This document shows positions 1-57,490 of a DNA stretch of 57,490 nt, piece after piece (position 1 is the stretch's first letter; each line of letters begins with the position of its first letter). The notes beneath the pieces are model-generated. The model was not told the origin of the DNA. It searched no databases and saw only the letters and a list, made by a program, of their open reading frames with translations. The position numbers and the translations under genes are program-made. Source of the stretch: a virus (lineage: Duplodnaviria; Caudoviricetes); IMG/VR virus record IMGVR_UViG_3300042988_000148, positions 1 through 57,490 of that record; one strand, 5' to 3'.

Positions 1-230
1 GTCAAGAACTGATAGCTGACATTGCTGTTGCTTTAAAGCAAGCAAGGGATAGTGAACTTACTGATGAAGAACGTCAGTGGGTTCGCCTTGCCATTGCCGC
101 AGAAGCTAGAAAAATCAAATTCCGTGACGCTGTTATTGAAAAAACGCTCACGGGTTTGACTTGGTCTGGCATTGTTGGTCTTGGTTACGTATTCCTAGAC
201 TTTTTCCGAAATCACGGATTAAAAGTATGA
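1..230 (+). CDS. 5'-truncated small membrane protein
   Basis: Frame 3 is open from the window edge (QELIADIAVALKQ...KTLTGLTWSGIVGLGYVFLDFFRNHGLKV*), with a C-terminal hydrophobic segment. TGA 228-230 overlaps the next ATG (ATGA). Confidence 0.75.
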   Translation, partial: QELIADIAVALKQARDSELTDEERQWVRLAIAAEARKIKFRDAVIEKTLTGLTWSGIVGLGYVFLDFFRNHGLKV

Positions 231-751
231 ATCGGTTTGTAGCAACCTGTCTGATTGCAACATCATTCAGTGTTGCTGCACAACCTATTGAGACAATTTC
301 AAACAACACCAGTACGGTGACGACAAACGGTAGCATGACTACTGTTGTTAAGTCTCCACCTCCGTCTGCAATATCACCTCAGATCGGCGCTAATGCGTCA
401 TCTGACCTTTGTACGGTTGGAGTTGCTGGCGCTGTTCAAACTCAGATTTTGGGTATCTCTGCTGGTACAACATTCACTGAAGACAACTGTGTCCGTTTAA
501 AGAACGCTAAAACGCTTTACGACATGGGCATGAAAGTCGCGGCTGTCTCTGTGATGTGCCAAGACAAAAAAGTCTTTGATGCAATGATGCATGCAGGTAC
601 TCCCTGTCCTTATGACGGAATGATCGGTCCTGCTGCTAAAGCTGCTTGGCAAGCAAACCCTAAACAAGAGGAAGTGAAGAATGAAAAGCCAACTTCGATA
701 TTCAACACTGGCTACATTCTTGGCGTTTTGGGCCTCTTGTTGTTGTTCTGA
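227..751 (+). CDS. Secreted Cys-containing protein with C-terminal membrane anchor (174 aa)
   Basis: ATG at 227 (ATGA coupling). Signal peptide MNRFVATCLIATSFSVAA, a Cys-flanked beta-hairpin (C-TVGVAGAVQTQILGISAGTTFTEDN-C) and hydrophobic C-terminus GYILGVLGLLLLF. Confidence 0.75.
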   Translation: MNRFVATCLIATSFSVAAQPIETISNNTSTVTTNGSMTTVVKSPPPSAISPQIGANASSDLCTVGVAGAVQTQILGISAGTTFTEDNCVRLKNAKTLYDMGMKVAAVSVMCQDKKVFDAMMHAGTPCPYDGMIGPAAKAAWQANPKQEEVKNEKPTSIFNTGYILGVLGLLLLF

Positions 752-1523
752 GCCTTACACCTATGGTGTCACGAAGAACGCTGCTGCTGCAGGTTTGACA
801 TGGGACATGAGCGTATTGCCTAAGGAGACAGGTTTAACGGTCAACGGTGTTGTTTATCAATACACAACTGTGAAGCGTCCAGAGGACAACATGCTTGTTC
901 ATGTTCGAAATCTAAATGCCAGAGGTGATGGTTACATCTTCAGAGAAACCGATGATTGGTCTAAGCTTCCGGGCAACACAATCAATAAAGTAGTCTCTGT
1001 TGATAATGTTCCTATTGGATATTGGGGCAAAGGGTCTATTGATGTTGAGGGACAAGGTAGAGTTGAGAAACCAAGTGTGGTCTACACCTATCGAGTAGAT
1101 CACTGTTTCAATGCAGAGATAACGCCGGGTTGTCCCGGATATAAACCAATTGTTCCAGAACAAAAGATTGAAACATATAACGCTCTTGATGATAGTGCTG
1201 TGAAGCAAGCTACCAAGAAAACAGAACAAGAATATAAGCAGGAAGTACAGAAACGAGAAGCTAAAGAGAAGGCCCTCTCACAAGCTGGTAGCGCAATTGA
1301 AGAAGCAGGTAAGTTATCACAAGAGTCATTGCTTCAGGCGATGAATAACATGACATCGTTTAGTAGTTATTATTCACTGGCAATAAAAGGTGGTGCTTAC
1401 AAAGACTCTCTAGTTCTTCTCGACACTAAACTTCCTGAAAATAGAACCGGTCTGCGAAACGGATTGGCTCAACAAGTTCTTCATACGAAGATGATTGATT
1501 TGCAATATGAAAGAAAACCATGA
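681..1523 (+). CDS. Secreted protein, beta-rich N-domain plus helical/coiled-coil C-domain
   Basis: Signal-peptide-like N-terminus, beta-rich region, C-x8-C pair (HCFNAEITPGC) and charged helical C-half. ATGA overlap with the next gene. Confidence 0.7.
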   Translation: MKSQLRYSTLATFLAFWASCCCSEPYTYGVTKNAAAAGLTWDMSVLPKETGLTVNGVVYQYTTVKRPEDNMLVHVRNLNARGDGYIFRETDDWSKLPGNTINKVVSVDNVPIGYWGKGSIDVEGQGRVEKPSVVYTYRVDHCFNAEITPGCPGYKPIVPEQKIETYNALDDSAVKQATKKTEQEYKQEVQKREAKEKALSQAGSAIEEAGKLSQESLLQAMNNMTSFSSYYSLAIKGGAYKDSLVLLDTKLPENRTGLRNGLAQQVLHTKMIDLQYERKP

Positions 1524-2005
1524 AGTATTTATTTCTACTCCTGTTACCCTTCGCCGTATGTGCTGAAGAAGTTCCAATCATTGGGAATGTTCAGTCTAAA
1601 TGTGTCATTACAACAGACACCCCCGGCGTATATGGTAACCCCACTGCTGATAAATTAAGCACATCACCTGTTGATGGTGGTGTAATGCCTATTGTTCGCT
1701 ACGATGTCTCCATTGCTAATGCATACAAGGCCCGTATCAGTACCCCTACTAGCTTCTCTACCAGCCCTTCGTTGAACGATACGGTGACATGGACAGGTTC
1801 TACTTCTATCAGTTCTGTTTCCGATGCACAAATGTCTGGTTATGAAACAAACAAGATTGTGTATGACAATGCTACCGAATACAACCTAGCACTTGCTGGT
1901 TCGACATGGTTTAAATCAAGCTCTTCCGCCAAGTACGGTTTCAATAAAGCCTTTCCCGGTGGTACATATCGTGCTGTGGTGTACGCTGAATGTATCGCTC
2001 GTTAA
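1520..2005 (+). CDS. Fimbrial pilin-like secreted protein
   Basis: Signal peptide, then N-terminal V-x-I-x-G-x-V-x-S-x-C-x-I and C-terminal PGGTYRAVVYAEC. These resemble the donor strand and conserved C-terminal Gly-x-Tyr strand of chaperone-usher pilins. Confidence 0.55.
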   Translation: MKYLFLLLLPFAVCAEEVPIIGNVQSKCVITTDTPGVYGNPTADKLSTSPVDGGVMPIVRYDVSIANAYKARISTPTSFSTSPSLNDTVTWTGSTSISSVSDAQMSGYETNKIVYDNATEYNLALAGSTWFKSSSSAKYGFNKAFPGGTYRAVVYAECIAR

Positions 2006-2361
2006 TATTGCTGCTGCTTGTGACCTGCGCACATGCACATGAAATGGTTCCTGCATATCCAAAGATGGAATCGTCCCATGTTGCTGGTGTTAGCAAAACT
2101 TCGGTTGAAGTATTCAATCGTAGAGAAGATGTGCAATATTATGAAGTTGGTGTATTTACAAAAGACTGGACACCTGTTCGGTTCGTAACCGCATACAACA
2201 TTATCAAGCTTAACTATCTAGGTCGAGTCAAGATTGATGTGTACATACGAGATGAGGATGTTGCTTCTGCCACATATATATGCTCTCAATCAAAAATTAG
2301 AAGTGATATGAACAATACAACGGCGGTGTCGTCGAAGATTTGTTCTAAGTTGATTAAATGA
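1990..2361 (+). CDS. PapD-like periplasmic chaperone (single Ig-like domain)
   Basis: Signal peptide ending AHA, then HEMVP, V-x-V-x-N, Y-x-V-x-V strands and a C-terminal Cys pair (YICSQS...SKICSK), similar to pilus chaperone N-domains. Confidence 0.45.
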   Translation: MYRSLILLLLVTCAHAHEMVPAYPKMESSHVAGVSKTSVEVFNRREDVQYYEVGVFTKDWTPVRFVTAYNIIKLNYLGRVKIDVYIRDEDVASATYICSQSKIRSDMNNTTAVSSKICSKLIK

Positions 2362-2771
2362 AAAAGTCAGTACTGGCATTGTTGTTTGCTTGTGTAAATG
2401 TGTTTGCACAGAACAGTTCATTGAACTTGCAGATGCCCTACGGTTTTTCAAACTATCAGTCTGATAAGTTCAGAGCTGGCGAACTGGATTGCTCAAACGC
2501 TATTGGTGGTGGAAAGAATCTTGAGTTTGGTGTAACAAGTATTCTTAATAACACCAGTGGTATTTTGACTAGCTCCGATCCTAGTGTTCCGAAATCAAAA
2601 GATGTTGGTGTGTATGCGCGTATCACAATTCCAATTGATGAAGTTCCTGAGCGTATCAACTGCAATTCTCTTTATCAACTTGAGCTGAAAAAGAAACGTG
2701 TTGAGATTGAGAAGCTTGAGACAGAGCTTGATAACCTACGCAAGCTAAAGAACGGAAAGTTTGAAAACTAA
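2358..2771 (+). CDS. Secreted protein with amphipathic beta-hairpin and C-terminal coiled coil
   Basis: Signal peptide. Strands NLEFGVT and VGVYARITIPI lie between two Cys, followed by a heptad tail LELKKKRVEIEKLETELDNL. ATGA coupling. Confidence 0.7.
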   Translation: MKKSVLALLFACVNVFAQNSSLNLQMPYGFSNYQSDKFRAGELDCSNAIGGGKNLEFGVTSILNNTSGILTSSDPSVPKSKDVGVYARITIPIDEVPERINCNSLYQLELKKKRVEIEKLETELDNLRKLKNGKFEN

Positions 2772-2772
2772 T

Positions 2773-3297
2773 ATGGCTGATCTTGGTGAAGAACTTAAGA
2801 AGGTTGAAGACCTTAAAAAGAAGGAGTTCACAGTCTTCGGATTGAAGATGACCCCTTTGACTATTGGTGCTTTATTCACATTGTTATCGACTGTCATCGG
2901 GACAATGTATGGTGGTTTTGTCCTGTATAAGAAGGTTGTCGCTGTAGCCAATCTTGACCTTGGTGAGTATCAACAGAAGATGGATCTGATGGATGCCAAA
3001 GTTGAAGAGGCTCTGAAGTATGCCAAAGATATTAAAGATGGTATGCGCGGTGACATCATGCGTGTTGAGTCTGCTGCTGAACGAGCCAACAATAAAGTTG
3101 ATTCTGTGTCCATGAGAACTGAAGGCAAGGTAGATCGTTTGGAAGAAAAGATGCGTAAGCTATTAGACGATGCCGATGCTAGATTTGAATCGCAACGAGA
3201 GAAGCTACGCAGCTCTCAGAAGTCTGATACCAAAGAACTAGAAGACCGCATTAATGCCAGAGTTCAAAAGGCTCTGGATAATCCATTGTCGAAGTGA
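2773..3297 (+). CDS. Single-pass membrane protein with long coiled coil
   Basis: ATG at 2773, one TM helix (IGALFTLLSTVIGTMYGGFVLY), then about 110 aa of coiled coil. Confidence 0.75.
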   Translation: MADLGEELKKVEDLKKKEFTVFGLKMTPLTIGALFTLLSTVIGTMYGGFVLYKKVVAVANLDLGEYQQKMDLMDAKVEEALKYAKDIKDGMRGDIMRVESAAERANNKVDSVSMRTEGKVDRLEEKMRKLLDDADARFESQREKLRSSQKSDTKELEDRINARVQKALDNPLSK

Positions 3298-3307
3298 AAG
3301 GTAAATA

Positions 3308-3493
3308 ATGTACGAATTTGAAACATGGTGGAAAAAACATTGGATTGATAAACCGCACTGGTTGCATAGACAATGCTTCGAAGAAGGTTATAACTGTGCT
3401 ATGGCGCAAACCAAGAAAGAGAATGTGCGAATAGCTATTGCCTCTGTTATTGCGCTTGTGGTCCTTGTTGGCCTATATTTCATTAAAGGATAA
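3308..3493 (+). CDS. Small membrane protein
   Basis: AAGGT SD and C-terminal TM helix. Confidence 0.6.
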   Translation: MYEFETWWKKHWIDKPHWLHRQCFEEGYNCAMAQTKKENVRIAIASVIALVVLVGLYFIKG

Positions 3494-3498
3494 TCGAT

Positions 3499-3795
3499 AT
3501 GACTAATATGCGAATGACACCAGAGGATATCGAAATTCGAGTTTGGGCATTTATTGTTGTATGCATTATGACAATGCTGTTTGTTATTGCCCTTGGTATT
3601 TTGTGGGCTGTTGCTTTTGAAACACAAACAATGGAACTCGCACCAATTGATGGTATCTTCCTTGAGATCTTGAAGGCTGTTGCTTACATGAGCATCGGTA
3701 CTCTTGGTGGTATTGCTGGTCGTAAAGTAGCAGCAAAGGCTGGTGCTGCTCTTGGTGAGGAAGACAAAGATGATTCCAATCCCAGCGCTGCTTGA
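3499..3795 (+). CDS. Two-TM membrane protein, possible holin/antiholin
   Basis: AAGGA SD, two hydrophobic helices, charged C-tail, located in the lysis cassette. Confidence 0.55.
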   Translation: MTNMRMTPEDIEIRVWAFIVVCIMTMLFVIALGILWAVAFETQTMELAPIDGIFLEILKAVAYMSIGTLGGIAGRKVAAKAGAALGEEDKDDSNPSAA

Positions 3796-4195
3796 GGTTG
3801 GCGGTAAGTTGCTGGATCGGTTTATGCCAGATCCTGCAGCTGCTGCTAAGGCTAAGGCTGATCTAGAACAGATGGCTGCTCAGAACAAACTGGCAGAACT
3901 CAACGTCGATCTTGAAGCATACAAGACTGAACAGAACAATCTCACAGAGCGCCTTAAAGCCGACATGGCTAGTGACTCTTGGTTGTCCAAAAACATTCGA
4001 CCATTGACGTTGATCTTCATTCTCTTTGCCTATTTCACTTTTGCAATGATGTCTGCTTTTGATCTTGAGACACGTGGCAATTATGTTGAGCTTCTTGGTC
4101 AATGGGGCATGTTGATTATGTCGTTCTACTTTGGTGGACGAACTCTTGAAAAAATCATGGACATGAAAGGAAATAAAAATGAACCTGACAAATAA
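3770..4195 (+). CDS. Holin (GTA 3TM holin-like)
   Basis: Motifs KLLDRFMPDP, SDSWLSKNIRP and FYFGGRTLEK are typical of the GTA_holin_3TM family. Directly upstream of the endolysin. Confidence 0.75.
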   Translation: MIPIPALLEVGGKLLDRFMPDPAAAAKAKADLEQMAAQNKLAELNVDLEAYKTEQNNLTERLKADMASDSWLSKNIRPLTLIFILFAYFTFAMMSAFDLETRGNYVELLGQWGMLIMSFYFGGRTLEKIMDMKGNKNEPDK

Positions 4196-4643
4196 CTTCT
4201 CACTGAGTGAATTGACTCACAGCGACACTGCTGTCAAAAAAGGATTGGACAACACTCCAACGCAAGAGATTATTGATAATCTGAAAGTGCTTTGTGAGAA
4301 AGTGTTGCAGCCTGTGCGTGAACATTACGGCAAGAGTGTTAAAGTTAATAGCGGCTATCGTGCTCCTGAAGTGAATGCATCGGTTGGTGGTAGCAAGACT
4401 AGCGATCACTGCAAAGGTCAAGCCGCTGACATTGAAATTGTTGGTATTGCCAACGGTGATCTTGCTAAATATATCAAAGATAGCTTACAATTCACACAAG
4501 TCATTTTGGAGTTTTATACTCCCGGTATTCCCGACAGTGGTTGGGTACACGTGTCATACGACCCTAAAGATTTGAAATGTCAGGTGCTGACTGCTACGAA
4601 GAAAGACGGTAAGACTGTCTATCTTCCCGGTCTGGTGCTTTAA
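4179..4643 (+). CDS. Endolysin, peptidase M15A family
   Basis: NFSLSEL, SGYR, SDHCKGQAADI (H-x6-D) and WVHVS zinc-ligand motifs. Confidence 0.9.
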   Translation: MNLTNNFSLSELTHSDTAVKKGLDNTPTQEIIDNLKVLCEKVLQPVREHYGKSVKVNSGYRAPEVNASVGGSKTSDHCKGQAADIEIVGIANGDLAKYIKDSLQFTQVILEFYTPGIPDSGWVHVSYDPKDLKCQVLTATKKDGKTVYLPGLVL

Positions 4644-4649
4644 TAAGGA

Positions 4650-4985
4650 ATGAGCATGGAATTTACAGCTAAGCAAAAAGAGATTGTTGCACGTAAGATG
4701 GGCTATGATGGCCCTATGCAAATGTTTGATGAGTTCCTTGCCGCATCCCCTTCTGACTCTCAGCGTTATTCTGCACTGACTTCTAAGTTTGCTGAGCGTA
4801 TGGCTAAAGGCGGTTTCGTTAAGAAGTACGCTGCAGGCGGTGTTGTAACAAAGATCAGTGATGCCGAGATCAAAGGGTTCTATGAACAGAACAAGGGCAA
4901 TCCGGAATTGTTGAAATCTACTGCTGCACAATATGGTGTTTCTGAACAAGACATCACCAGAGCTTTGGGTATTTCGATTCGATGA
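4650..4985 (+). CDS. Small internal virion protein / N-terminal piece of an ejection protein
   Basis: AAGGA SD. Contains MAKGG and YAAGG motifs shared with other virion proteins in this window. Confidence 0.55.
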   Translation: MSMEFTAKQKEIVARKMGYDGPMQMFDEFLAASPSDSQRYSALTSKFAERMAKGGFVKKYAAGGVVTKISDAEIKGFYEQNKGNPELLKSTAAQYGVSEQDITRALGISIR

Positions 4986-5380
4986 AATTTGAGGTTGTAT
5001 TAGATATCGATAGTGTTTGGGATGATGTTGTTGGTTTCATAGATAGCACCATTCCTTATGTTCATGGTGAATTCACAACACAAGATGTCAAAGACAAATT
5101 GTTGGATAACGAGTATAACCTAATCGTTATAAGTAATGATGATAATATAATTGGTGCTATTGTTTTTAGCACACATTTTGTTGCTAATAAAAATACTGCC
5201 TTCATTATCATCACTGCAGGCAGACACATAACAAACGATGATGCTTGGCAAAAGTTAAAAACTTTGTTTAGTAATCTTGGGTATGAATACATTGAAGCAG
5301 GAATGCGTGATAGCACCATGCGACTTTGGTCAAAGCTGGGCTTCAAAAAGAAATACAACATAGTTGGAGTTGATATATGA
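4982..5380 (+). CDS. GNAT-fold protein (P22 gp14 / T7 gp13-like)
   Basis: Beta-rich GNAT-like pattern with C-terminal MRLWSKLGF. Precedes the ejection genes, is visibly AT-rich, and has ATGA overlaps on both sides. Confidence 0.6.
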   Translation: MKFEVVLDIDSVWDDVVGFIDSTIPYVHGEFTTQDVKDKLLDNEYNLIVISNDDNIIGAIVFSTHFVANKNTAFIIITAGRHITNDDAWQKLKTLFSNLGYEYIEAGMRDSTMRLWSKLGFKKKYNIVGVDI

Positions 5381-32984: not shown

Positions 32985-33785
32985 TCATTTAACGTGGATG
33001 AACGGTGTCACACCGCCAGCATTTGTAGTGGGCAGCTTACCGTCCCACTTCTTGATCGCCTCAAGCTCAACGTACTCTTTACCACCCTGTGCAGAGATGG
33101 CCTGTGCCTTGATGCGGATGGCATCAGCAATACCTTGTGCTTCAACACGATTGCGTTCAGCCTCAGCCTTAGCAAGCTCCACTTCTTTTTGCTTTGCAGC
33201 AATTTGGAAGTTGCGATTGGCAGCTTCTTTGATGGACGCTTCCAGTGCAGGATCTGTCACGAGGTTACGAACGTTAGCAGAGCGAACAAAGAACCAACCC
33301 TTAGCGCTTGCATCCAACTCAGCCTGCAACATCTTCACAATGTCAGCAGAGATTTCGTTGCGCTCAGTGTGGACAGTGGCGCTACCTCGTTTGGATACAG
33401 CGTTGTAGATAACCTCACGGGCTTGACGAGTGGCGTAGTTGAAACCGACACGCTCAGCGTCTTCACCCTTCACCTCAGAACGATCACCGGGCCAACGAGT
33501 CAGGATGGCAGGTGCCTTCGACGCATCAATCTGCAGGTAGATGTCAACGTCCATGTCAGCCAGTGTAATTTTGTCACTGGTCTGTGGCTTCATGTCATTC
33601 AGTTGTAGCGGCAGCTCTTTGCCTGAAACTTCAATGACTTTCTTGAACAGCGTGAAGTAGGTGCCGGGTGACAATGTCTGGTCTTTGACCTGACCCATCG
33701 TAGATTCAACACCTACGTTGCCAGTATCAATTTGTGTACAGGCAGCAAGGCTAGCAACAAGAGAAGCGAGAATAAGTTTTTTCAT
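32985..33785 (-). CDS. SPFH/band-7 (prohibitin-like) lipoprotein
   Basis: ATG at 33785, lipobox LAAC, IDTGNVGV, AE-repeat coiled coil and IKKWDGKLP. Confidence 0.85.
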   Translation of the reverse strand: MKKLILASLVASLAACTQIDTGNVGVESTMGQVKDQTLSPGTYFTLFKKVIEVSGKELPLQLNDMKPQTSDKITLADMDVDIYLQIDASKAPAILTRWPGDRSEVKGEDAERVGFNYATRQAREVIYNAVSKRGSATVHTERNEISADIVKMLQAELDASAKGWFFVRSANVRNLVTDPALEASIKEAANRNFQIAAKQKEVELAKAEAERNRVEAQGIADAIRIKAQAISAQGGKEYVELEAIKKWDGKLPTTNAGGVTPFIHVK

Positions 33786-35308: not shown

Positions 35309-35510
35309 CTCTGATCTTGCACAAGGCATCAGCAATCTTGTAGCAGTAGCGACTCAGCGCCGCAGCATCCGATACTTCTGCACCACTGGACAACACACCC
35401 TTCATAAGTTCAAGGGCGAAGTCGTCTCGCAATTCACGTGGTGCCTTCTCAGCATAGGCAGGACGACCACGACTACGTGTTGTTTTCTCTGGAGTTGCTT
35501 CATCGTTCAT
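35301..35510 (-). CDS. Hypothetical protein (LRDDFA family)
   Basis: LRDDFA...YKIADA motif and AAGGA SD. Confidence 0.65.
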   Translation of the reverse strand: MNDEATPEKTTRSRGRPAYAEKAPRELRDDFALELMKGVLSSGAEVSDAAALSRYCYKIADALCKIRDE

Positions 35511-35955
35511 TTGATTTTCCTTTGTAAAAAATGTGGTTGTTTATGACAACAACTTTGTCCAGTGCTTTGCGCCACACCGGCTTAACCTTTGTGGTGTGGT
35601 AGTGGGTGGCACCACCGGTGAAGTCATGCAAGGTGCCTGTCATAGCGGCTGACGCTACAGCATAAGCATCGTTGATGTTGCCGCTGAGCGGCTTGTCACG
35701 ACCCTTCGCTGTGTTAGCCCAGCTAAATTGCTTACGCTGGTACACAACATCACACACTGTTTTGTTTTGCTGAGCAGCCCTGTTCAGGGTGACCAGTGCC
35801 ACAGACTGCATACCTTCAACACCTTCACCACGTGCTTCGTGATAGATGTTCTTGAGCATACACATAAACTGCGTTGCCTGTGCTGTCGATGGCGGTGCTT
35901 TGTGAGTGCATGATGTAGCAGACAAGAGCAGCACGACAGCGACAACCACTCTCAT
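35500..35955 (-). CDS. Cell wall hydrolase, SleB (Hydrolase_2) family
   Basis: IYHEARGE, VTLNR, VVYQ-x2-QFSW, GATHYH and HIFY, with an N-terminal signal/lipoprotein-like segment. Confidence 0.92.
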   Translation of the reverse strand: MRVVVAVVLLLSATSCTHKAPPSTAQATQFMCMLKNIYHEARGEGVEGMQSVALVTLNRAAQQNKTVCDVVYQRKQFSWANTAKGRDKPLSGNINDAYAVASAAMTGTLHDFTGGATHYHTTKVKPVWRKALDKVVVINNHIFYKGKSNER

Positions 35956-56862: not shown

Positions 56863-57490
56863 ATGACAGGCTACGTACGTACAGACACGACCAACAACAT
56901 CGCAGACGGGAATATTATTTCAGCCGCAGACCTCGACAACGAGTTCGATGGTATTCAATCGGCGTTCAATAGCTCCACTGGTCACAACCATGACGGTACC
57001 ACTGGTGAAGGCGCTCCTATTCTTGTGTTGGGTCCGACACAGGACGTAGTGGTTGGTGCCACCACTGTCACACCAAAGACAACTAACACTGTTGACATCG
57101 GCTCTAGCTCTCTGAAGTTTAAAGACTTGTTCTTGGCAGGCAATGCTAGCATTGGTGGTACATTGGCTGTTACAGGTGTAGCCACCCTGACCGCACAACC
57201 AATCTTGTCTTCGTTGACAGCCAGCCGCGCTGTGTTCACCGATAGTTCTAAAGGGCTTGTGAGCAACGCCATCACTGGTACCGGTAATGTTGTGATGTCG
57301 GCAAGCCCTACGTTGACAGGCACGATTAACGCTGAAGCGCTGACAACCTCGTCAACTGTGACACTGAACGCTGGTACTGCTAACGGAGTTGCTTACCTGA
57401 ACGGTTCTAAAGCACTTACCACTGGTACTGCGCTGACGTTTGATGGGACGAGGTTGACGGCTACCTACGCTGCAAATTATGTTGCGCGTT
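56863..57490 (+). CDS. Tail fibre protein, 3'-truncated
   Basis: AAGGA SD. MTGYVRTD...IADGNII-x-AADLDNEFD...GHNHDGT N-terminal anchor, open to the window edge. Confidence 0.8.
   Translation, partial: MTGYVRTDTTNNIADGNIISAADLDNEFDGIQSAFNSSTGHNHDGTTGEGAPILVLGPTQDVVVGATTVTPKTTNTVDIGSSSLKFKDLFLAGNASIGGTLAVTGVATLTAQPILSSLTASRAVFTDSSKGLVSNAITGTGNVVMSASPTLTGTINAEALTTSSTVTLNAGTANGVAYLNGSKALTTGTALTFDGTRLTATYAANYVAR

Follow-up and report, generated by a model that had tools for sequence, protein, structure and literature searches.

Phage-borne modules that secrete fibres have already been published, and the closest precedent for the locus considered here is the curli (type VIII secretion system, T8SS) module of pelagiphages (PMC9599517), a multi-gene unit that depends on the general secretory (Sec) pathway, has a conserved gene order, is exchanged between phage families, and is absent from the host. 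Further comparisons are offered by the chaperone-usher pili (Fim, Pap, CFA/I, and Csu) and by phage spanins such as lambda Rz/Rz1. The locus in question is a run of six genes, here termed o1 to o6, at positions 227 to 3297 of the IMG/VR virus record IMGVR_UViG_3300042988_000148, the whole of which (57,490 bases) constitutes the window analysed. Judging from sequence comparison, the six genes are a conserved mobile cassette, inherited as one phage-specific module, and this organization, combined with the lack of any match to a known machine, is what is new here. The safest statement about its products is that they represent a phage-specific, late (by gene position), Sec-exported multi-protein module that would act in the host envelope. 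A literature search that left supplements aside found no description of the six-gene cassette.

Like the pelagiphage curli module (PMC9599517), the cassette is a multi-gene, Sec-dependent envelope module of abundant aquatic phages, with a conserved gene order, evidence of exchange, and near-absence from cellular genomes; its carriers are termed aquatic rather than marine because the labels of the sequencing runs (six DNA-type runs) indicate freshwater. It differs in lacking CsgG, CsgF, curlin-repeat, FecR, kinase, and cyclase domains, in being linked to lysis genes, and in consisting of six families that are all unannotated. A first-pass annotation made from the window alone had interpreted the genes as a minimal pilus or fibre assembly system composed of a pilin, a chaperone, one or more outer-membrane pore candidates, and an inner-membrane coiled-coil anchor. 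The mobility of the cassette among phage types, its reduced core in cultured phages, and its recurrent partnership with lysis genes, all described below, were absent from that annotation.

Gene order, conservation, and mobility

All six genes are encoded on the plus strand and form the coupled series noted in the first-pass annotation, with which both the list of open reading frames (ORFs) and their overlaps agree: o1 occupies positions 227-751 (174 aa), o2 681-1523 (280 aa), o3 1520-2005 (161 aa), o4 1990-2361 (123 aa), o5 2358-2771 (137 aa), and o6 2773-3297 (174 aa from its ATG, or 178 aa from an alternative TTG at 2761). ATGA start/stop overlaps are found at positions 227, 1520, and 2358, o3 and o4 overlap by 16 nt, and the ATG of o6 lies 1 nt past the o5 stop. 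The longest overlap, between o1 and o2 (681-751, 71 nt), encodes the C-terminal anchor of o1 and the signal peptide of o2 in different frames of the same DNA, an arrangement that is conserved in another locus (L003:5195-5262, 68 nt).

Scanning viral contigs with o3 recovered 86 relatives, and 80 loci were kept, in which the other genes were located by tblastn. Order and strand are the same for o1 in 74 of the 80 loci, o2 in 79, o3 in all 80, o4 in 79, o5 in 76, and o6 in 68, many of the missing genes belonging to loci cut by contig ends. The co-occurrence check called for by the first-pass annotation thus showed that the six genes are kept together and in the same order, each in 68-80 of the 80 loci; the holin, endolysin, and adjoining small genes of the window occur in none of them (0/80). 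When 45 distinct loci are compared, the identity matrices of the six families show Spearman correlations of 0.38-0.81, with o2-o6 reaching the top value of 0.81; this agrees with joint inheritance, common ancestry alone being expected to yield some correlation. Clustering of flanking ORFs and PHROG scans of cluster representatives distinguished at least five phage backbones around the cassette, namely one with tail-fibre genes (clusters c13 and c44) upstream, one with portal, scaffold, and capsid genes of another type, one with small and large terminase genes and a different portal, one with a lambda-J-like tail protein, and one, on contigs of 63-114 kb, with genes for thymidylate synthase and helicase.

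The o3 family is large and largely confined to phages. In a database clustered at 90% identity it has 2401 relatives at E ≤ 0.001, of which the 120 listed have no Pfam domain and no name more informative than 'hypothetical'; at 50% identity, 117 representatives remain, many of them fragments. With the same peptide patterns that gave the 86 relatives in viral contigs, a single relative was found in 185,579 bacterial and archaeal species genomes, a count that conveys rarity rather than absence because the scan detects close relatives only. This lone cellular relative is a 3-kb contig in a Rhodobacteraceae bin that carries o2-o6 in order. As for deposited phages, tblastn with o2 and o3 gave zero matches in INPHARED, o6 matched HTVC115P only, with noise otherwise, and o1 homologues are present in 19 deposited phage records, six Pelagibacter phages among them.

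Export signals and membrane anchors

Signal peptides were scored by a crude home-made heuristic (basic n-region, uncharged hydrophobic core, and small residues at -3 and -1), which all five of o1-o5 pass, compared with 10 of the 79 other ORFs of the window. It is also passed by 43 of 49 homologues of o1, 54 of 55 of o2, 45 of 45 of o3, 52 of 52 of o4, and 46 of 46 of o5, counted over distinct full-length sequences after those shorter than 0.85 times the median length had been left out. The N-termini of these homologues vary in sequence but keep their basic, hydrophobic, and small-residue character, and no Cys near the cleavage site is conserved among the homologues of o1-o5. In the mature parts, four Cys residues are invariant in o1 and two each in o2, o3, o4, and o5, with none in o6, so that the five signal peptides and paired Cys residues reported initially are borne out. 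o1 additionally has a hydrophobic C-terminal anchor (48 of 49 homologues). The transmembrane helix and helical tail attributed to the sixth protein likewise correspond to a single hydrophobic segment in o6 (residues 33-51 in the 174-aa form) and, behind it, a tail in which 43% of the residues are charged, a layout that o6 alone has among the 85 ORFs of the window.

Taken at face value, these sequence features mark o1-o6 as exported or membrane proteins rather than typical virion proteins, and the envelope-directed, non-virion nature proposed at first is supported by the conserved export signals and anchors. That the proteins serve instead as virion or tail accessory components is hardly credible: tail-fibre genes do lie upstream in several loci (c13, c44), and the predicted fold of o2 matches the Sf6 needle knob and a cyanophage fibre domain, but cleavable signal peptides are conserved on five of the proteins and membrane anchors on two, and elsewhere the cassette follows head, terminase, or nucleotide-metabolism genes.

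Architecture of the six proteins

Family alignments of 19-30 sequences each, obtained from 66-79 sequences by a length filter and a cut at <85% identity, were prepared for all six proteins, and AlphaFold models were made for o2 and o3. Noise apart, o1-o6 gave nothing in Pfam at E ≤ 1, and NCBIfam and PADLOC returned coiled-coil noise only; profile searches of PDB sequences with the six family alignments yielded nothing significant, and PHROG matches were solely to families of unknown function (e.g., phrog_20531 for o1 at 6.4e-16 and phrog_37374 for o5 at 3.6e-5).

The first protein, o1, consists in order of a signal peptide, a Thr/Ser-rich stretch, an SPPPSAISP motif, a near-invariant four-Cys core domain, a variable charged linker, and the C-terminal hydrophobic anchor; in longer homologues the N-terminal stretch extends to ~180 aa rich in Thr, Ser, and Asn. 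It is among the conserved members of the cassette, with a mean column identity of 60%, compared with 66% for o3. The four-Cys core also stands alone in N4-like and jumbo phages of soil- or plant-associated hosts, including Achromobacter phage JWAlpha (JJJB_0025, L087:6470-7384) and Ralstonia phages RSP15, RSL1, and RsoM2USA, where it sits outside any lysis region. Given this occurrence, the core would therefore be older and more widespread than the cassette.

In o2, a signal peptide is followed by a jelly-roll domain, a C..DP.CPGY motif, an acidic helical linker, and a conserved helical C-terminal domain ending in QY. The AlphaFold model (predicted local distance difference test, pLDDT, 79.7) comprises a jelly roll at residues 26-140, a long helix at 182-224, and a terminal helix, and it matches PLTL, BC2L-C, the carbohydrate-binding domain of BcsB, Pgp3, and the Sf6 needle knob (E 3e-4 to 3e-3) as well as a cyanophage fibre domain. 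The predicted fold thus resembles a tumour necrosis factor (TNF)-like or lectin-like jelly roll with long helices, and shares with the BC2L-C N-domain, PLTL, Pgp3, and the Sf6 needle knob the succession of jelly roll and long helix. The likeness is at fold level only, with template-modelling (TM) scores of 0.2-0.3 over the whole chain and 6-13% identity, and o2 is set apart from these lectins and knobs by its signal peptide and by its own conserved C-terminal domain.

A head of this kind might recognize a host surface or periplasmic glycan, as would be expected if the products formed an envelope complex for superinfection exclusion or receptor masking, blocking other phages or stopping progeny from sticking to debris. 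Every part of the module is exported, the module is confined to phages, the o5 loop varies in length, and in pelagiphages the o2 head has been swapped for unrelated domains while the C-terminal part is kept (as also in P0180), all of which would suit such a function. Known superinfection-exclusion genes are mostly early, however, whereas the cassette is placed with late genes, as indicated by its ATGA coupling to the preceding gene and by its sharing a strand with the tail and lysis genes. The strong conservation of o1 and o3 in different phage backbones speaks for a universal target, not for individual competing phages, and the PADLOC search gave coiled-coil noise alone; an exclusion or masking function is accordingly regarded as distinctly unlikely.

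The signal peptide of o4 is followed by an invariant His (H17) as the first mature residue (AHEMTPTYP), present in 30 of 30 aligned sequences within an H..TP.YP context, and by two invariant Cys residues; the mature protein is probably a small two-Cys beta-sandwich forming a single domain of ~105 residues. Histidine-brace proteins (CopC, YcnI, and lytic polysaccharide monooxygenases, LPMOs) also have an N-terminal His after signal cleavage, and a periplasmic metal (copper) handling module centred on o4 would account for the invariance of H17. Nevertheless, o4 has no second invariant His and no Pfam match to the CopC, DUF1775, or LPMO families, and metal handling would leave the other five proteins and the lysis neighbourhood unexplained, which makes this explanation very improbable. 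The fifth protein has, after its signal peptide, two amphipathic strand-like segments on either side of the loop that varies in length. It also contains an invariant pair of Cys residues, and its C-terminus is a leucine-zipper helix, in many cases ending in FEN. In o6, the N-terminal membrane anchor precedes a long charged helical tail that ends in an invariant LDNPL motif, and its matches to coiled-coil proteins are weak. Profile comparison by hhalign detected no relationship between o4 and o3 or between o5 and o6.

Comparison with chaperone-usher pili and curli

The protein that comes closest to a known fibre subunit is o3, which has a signal peptide, a conserved N-terminal extension (VPIIGNV), and an immunoglobulin (Ig)-like beta-sandwich that an invariant Cys pair (C28-C158) closes. 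In its AlphaFold model (pLDDT 91) the sandwich begins at C28, and residues 17-27 lie outside the modelled fold, yet I20, G22, and V24 are conserved. The best PDB fold matches are donor-strand pilins of several families (CfaB, FimG/F, the PapG pilin domain, CsuA/B, CS17, archaeal cannulae, and bundling pili), and these matches are weak (Foldseek E 4e-3, TM score 0.41-0.46, root-mean-square deviation 7-10 Å); a fold search of BFVD with the o3 model gave none at E ≤ 0.001. Compared by hhalign with FimA/I/F/G, an o3 profile that included distant relatives reached 31% probability, in an alignment covering only the signal peptide and the G-x-V...C motif, which falls on the Fim N-terminal strand and its Cys; o3 against FimA showed no relationship. 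The distant relatives carry no Pfam domain and keep the N-terminal F-x-G-x-V...C and C-terminal G-x-Y-x-A...C patterns. A predicted complex of three mature o3 copies scored 0.21 against a mark of 0.42 and counts neither way. A separate observation concerns P0336 (1609 aa), in which five repeats match o3 residues 19-63 alongside DUF7619 and a type IX secretion (T9SS) Por_Secre_tail domain, making this protein a possible cellular relative of the N-terminal region of o3.

These features invite comparison with an usher-less surface fibre whose function would be to clump cells or to protect the infected cell, the roles proposed for curli encoded by phages. In such a fibre, o3 would polymerize by donor-strand exchange through its N-terminal extension, o4 would cap or chaperone the subunits, o2 would form a lectin tip, o5 oligomers would provide the passage through the outer membrane, and o1 and o6 would anchor the base. 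The idea draws on the agreement of the o3 model with donor-strand pilins from several families, on the conserved residues outside its fold, on the placement of its motif over the Fim N-terminal strand and Cys, on the retention of both Cys patterns in distant relatives, and on the likeness of o2 to trimeric lectins. In addition, pelagiphage T8SS modules have moved between phage families (PMC9599517). With chaperone-usher pili the cassette shares small Sec-exported subunits and, in o3, the nearest fold and a conserved N-terminal extension in which hydrophobic and Gly residues alternate ahead of a Cys; it differs from them in having neither an usher nor a two-domain PapD chaperone, in lacking Pfam membership, and in an o3 disulfide that links the first and last strands.

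The remaining parts of a pilus system find less correspondence in the cassette. For o4 as the chaperone, the nearest named Atlas cluster is of PapD_N type (language-model score 0.80), which is a lead only; PF00345 (PapD N-terminal) has no match in the window at E ≤ 10, and hhalign of o4 with FimC gave 0.05% probability, so that the proposed chaperone assignment was not sustained. Nor was an outer-membrane pore, the role suggested for one or more of the proteins, since no usher or other demonstrated pore was found. Ushers are ~800 aa long, and all six ORFs are ≤280 aa without an usher match in Pfam (PF00577 itself was not searched), nor do the 80 loci have any large conserved neighbour in common. 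At E ≤ 1, o1-o6 have no Pfam match to Fimbrial, SCPU, PapD, Usher, CsgG, CsgF, or curlin families. Three defining features of chaperone-usher and curli systems were thus looked for and found to be missing, the o3 fold matches are weak, and the reduced core of pelagiphages does without o3, o4, and o5. Of the minimal pilus system first envisaged, what stands is the modelled Ig fold of o3, whose best though weak matches are CfaB, FimG, PapG, and CsuA/B, together with the conserved extension outside it, and what does not is membership by sequence in any pilus, curli, or spanin family. Altogether, a surface fibre is considered unlikely.

Lysis neighbourhood and a possible trans-envelope complex

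As stated in the first-pass annotation, the cassette lies upstream of a holin and an endolysin. The holin gene (3743-4195, plus strand; GTA_holin_3TM type, PF11351 at 6.7e-9, phrog_3427 at 2.6e-21) starts 446 nt downstream of o6 and is followed by the gene for a peptidase M15 endolysin (4179-4643, plus strand; Peptidase_M15_3, PF08291 at 2.2e-22, phrog_894 at 1.2e-44). A comparable neighbourhood recurs elsewhere: among the 64 loci with at least 2 kb of downstream sequence, 46 have a gene of cluster c6, c8, or c7 within 2.5 kb downstream of the cassette, c6 being a membrane protein of ~106 aa, c8 phrog_2524, and c7 an endolysin (phrog_181). The c6 family (e.g., L031:9433-9753; 46 loci) usually follows o6 directly and has an acidic DxDxDG-like N-terminus and hydrophobic segments; it has no match in Pfam or PHROG, and its counterpart in phage CRP-207, gp72 (L085:3870-4226), adjoins the lysozyme gene of that phage, suggesting c6 as a candidate new holin family. 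Locus L003 likewise has, judged by eye, holin-like and lysozyme-like genes downstream of o6.

Cultured phages contain part of the cassette in a similar setting. HTVC115P encodes an o1 homologue (gp54), an o6 homologue (gp49, E 7e-26), and a protein of 466 aa in which the C-terminal end fits the o2 C-terminal profile (E 7e-5). In HTVC023P, o1 (gp45) is followed by a secreted 461-aa protein (gp46), by gp48, which by eye combines a transmembrane segment with a coiled coil ending in DNPLAQ, and then by a peptidase M15 (gp49). CRP-207 and CRP-810 carry an o1-like gene two genes upstream of the lysozyme gene; the CRP-810 protein, gp53 (L086:6827-7582), is o1-like without the C-terminal anchor, and its deposited name, 'OmpA family protein', receives no support from Pfam. 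On the basis of these matches, cultured pelagiphages hold a reduced core, consisting of o1, the C-terminal part of o2, and o6, beside the endolysin and without o3-o5.

With lambda Rz/Rz1, o6 shares the N-terminal anchor, a periplasmic coiled coil (predicted from sequence), and the neighbouring holin and endolysin genes; it has the layout of an i-spanin, and its position in a lysis cassette is seen both in the window and in 46 of the 64 loci. The T1 spanin gp11 combines an exported N-terminus with a membrane anchor at its C-terminus, and o1 is alike in both respects, but the N-terminus of o1 is of the signal peptidase I type without the conserved lipobox Cys of a unimolecular spanin. Rz/Rz1 families (PF03245, PF06085) have no match at E ≤ 10 in the whole window, and o1-o6 have no match to a spanin PHROG; apart from o6, the genome offers no spanin candidate. 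Spanins further differ in consisting of one or two proteins with a lipoprotein partner, whereas the cassette encodes six proteins, with no outer-membrane lipoprotein found, is strongly conserved, and includes Ig-like and lectin-like parts.

We tentatively propose that the products build a complex that is anchored in the inner membrane, spans the periplasm, and has a lysis-linked role, either spanin-like or accessory, because of the architecture of o6, the lack of a canonical spanin, the placement of the reduced pelagiphage core next to endolysins, and the repeated occurrence of lysis genes nearby. Such a role is at least as likely as a surface appendage because the unit is mobile, a reduced core exists, and lysis genes are its recurrent partner. 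According to this proposal, o1-o6 would be expressed along with the late genes for virion and lysis proteins and would assemble in the periplasm into a fibrous complex that is fixed to the inner membrane by o6, with its N-terminal anchor, coiled coil, and LDNPL tip, and by the C-terminal anchor of o1. The o2 protein, probably trimeric through its long helix, would carry a host-specific carbohydrate-binding head, and o3, o4, and o5 would be add-on beta-rich parts extending toward or into the outer membrane. As infection ends, the complex would act on the outer envelope and may serve as a lipoprotein-independent spanin counterpart or accessory that breaches or detaches the outer membrane after the endolysin has cut the wall.

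Several points weigh against this proposal. A regular-expression scan near 2761-4700 found no small lipobox ORF that could encode an o-spanin, and lipoprotein candidates near o6 were seen in 8 of 66 loci, plausible ones in 3 (L044/L045 and L065). No outer-membrane anchor was identified in the cassette, and we infer, rather than observe, both the barrel of o5 (from sequence) and the holin role of c6. Spanins are expected to be far less conserved than o3 (66%) and o1 (60%), and we know of no lysis mechanism that needs pilin-like or lectin-like folds. Moreover, 18 of the 64 loci lack c6, c7, and c8 neighbours, and L012 and L018 have opposite-strand genes flanking the cassette. The junction between tail and lysis genes is also a hot spot of variation, occupied in CRP-345 by five unrelated small genes, so that the shared neighbourhood may reflect position and not function.

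The position of o6 bears on a further possibility, that two separate things are combined, with o6 alone acting as a lysis protein (i-spanin-like or holin-associated) and o1-o5 forming an unrelated secreted module alongside. Inserts part o6 from o5 in many loci, including lipase_3, endonuclease, and c6 genes in L052-L060 and c14 in L012-L020, and CRP-345 gp46 combines a transmembrane segment and a coiled coil at a site without o1-o5. In particular, a class-3 lipase gene (cluster c15; PF01764 at 2.2e-20) lies between o5 and o6 in L053 (7295-8011) and in ten other loci, with an endonuclease gene (phrog_452) inserted alongside; the lipase has no evident signal peptide. In the reduced loci of pelagiphages too, however, o6-like proteins accompany o1 and o2-like genes, and o2-o6 is the most strongly correlated pair of families, which renders a split function improbable.

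A bolder version of the lysis-linked proposal would see in the cassette a third outer-membrane-breaching device, after spanins and cationic disruptins, that is lipoprotein-independent, spans the periplasm, and self-assembles without ATP. Such a device would consist of Ig subunits of donor-strand type (o3, o4, and the Thr-rich N-terminal part of o1), the coiled coils of o2, o5, and o6, and a host-specific lectin head, and it would be exchanged as a cassette among podo-, sipho-, and myovirus-like genomes. This version is regarded as decidedly doubtful.

Flanking genes and the phage record

Upstream of o1, positions 3..230 (plus strand) encode a small membrane protein, cut by the 5' record end, with a C-terminal hydrophobic segment and no Pfam match; an ATGA joins its stop to the start of o1. 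The gene, present in 1 of the 80 loci, does not belong to the fixed content of the cassette, and a complete homologue of 81 aa is encoded at L003:3717-3962. Between the cassette and the holin lie two further genes for small membrane proteins (3308-3493 and 3499-3795, plus strand), the second of which matches phrog_25359 at 1e-7; these two occur in 0 of the 80 loci. At the other end of the window, a tail-fibre-like gene (56863-57489) is cut by the 3' record end, and its frame and that of the 5' gene would join across the ends. The resulting 285-aa ORF was rejected, as the 5' piece is a separate 81-aa gene in L003, where other genes intervene between it and the tail fibre; because of this separation, the record probably lacks some sequence rather than being simply permuted.

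The window phage can be assigned from its gene content to the HMO-2011-type podoviruses because its capsid protein has 74.6% identity to that of Puniceispirillum phage HMO-2011 and 73% to those of Roseobacter phages CRP-1, CRP-9, and CRP-13, and because its further genes include those for a family-A DNA polymerase, primase-helicase, ribonucleotide reductase, terminase, and portal protein. By tail protein, its closest cultured relative is CRP-345 (55.8% identity), and a Megablast search with positions 1-5000 gave zero matches. The minus-strand arm contains genes for an SPFH/Band_7 protein (32985-33785; PF01145 at 4.8e-12) and a second cell-wall hydrolase (35500-35955; Hydrolase_2, PF07486 at 1.7e-21), both with lipoprotein-type signals (lipobox Cys), the latter gene being distant from the holin-endolysin pair.

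Implications for phage biology

With 2401 relatives of o3, the module is abundant, and it is nearly restricted to phages and common to unrelated phage backbones. HMO-2011-type and pelagiphage groups are described in published work as dominant and widely distributed in the ocean, and relatives of both are among the carriers. The six new protein families have a clear genomic signature; together with the reduced versions that cultured pelagiphages and roseophages carry, they open the question of function to direct testing. The cassette therefore bears on what late exported phage proteins do to the dying cell, be it lysis, aggregation, shielding, or the masking of debris.

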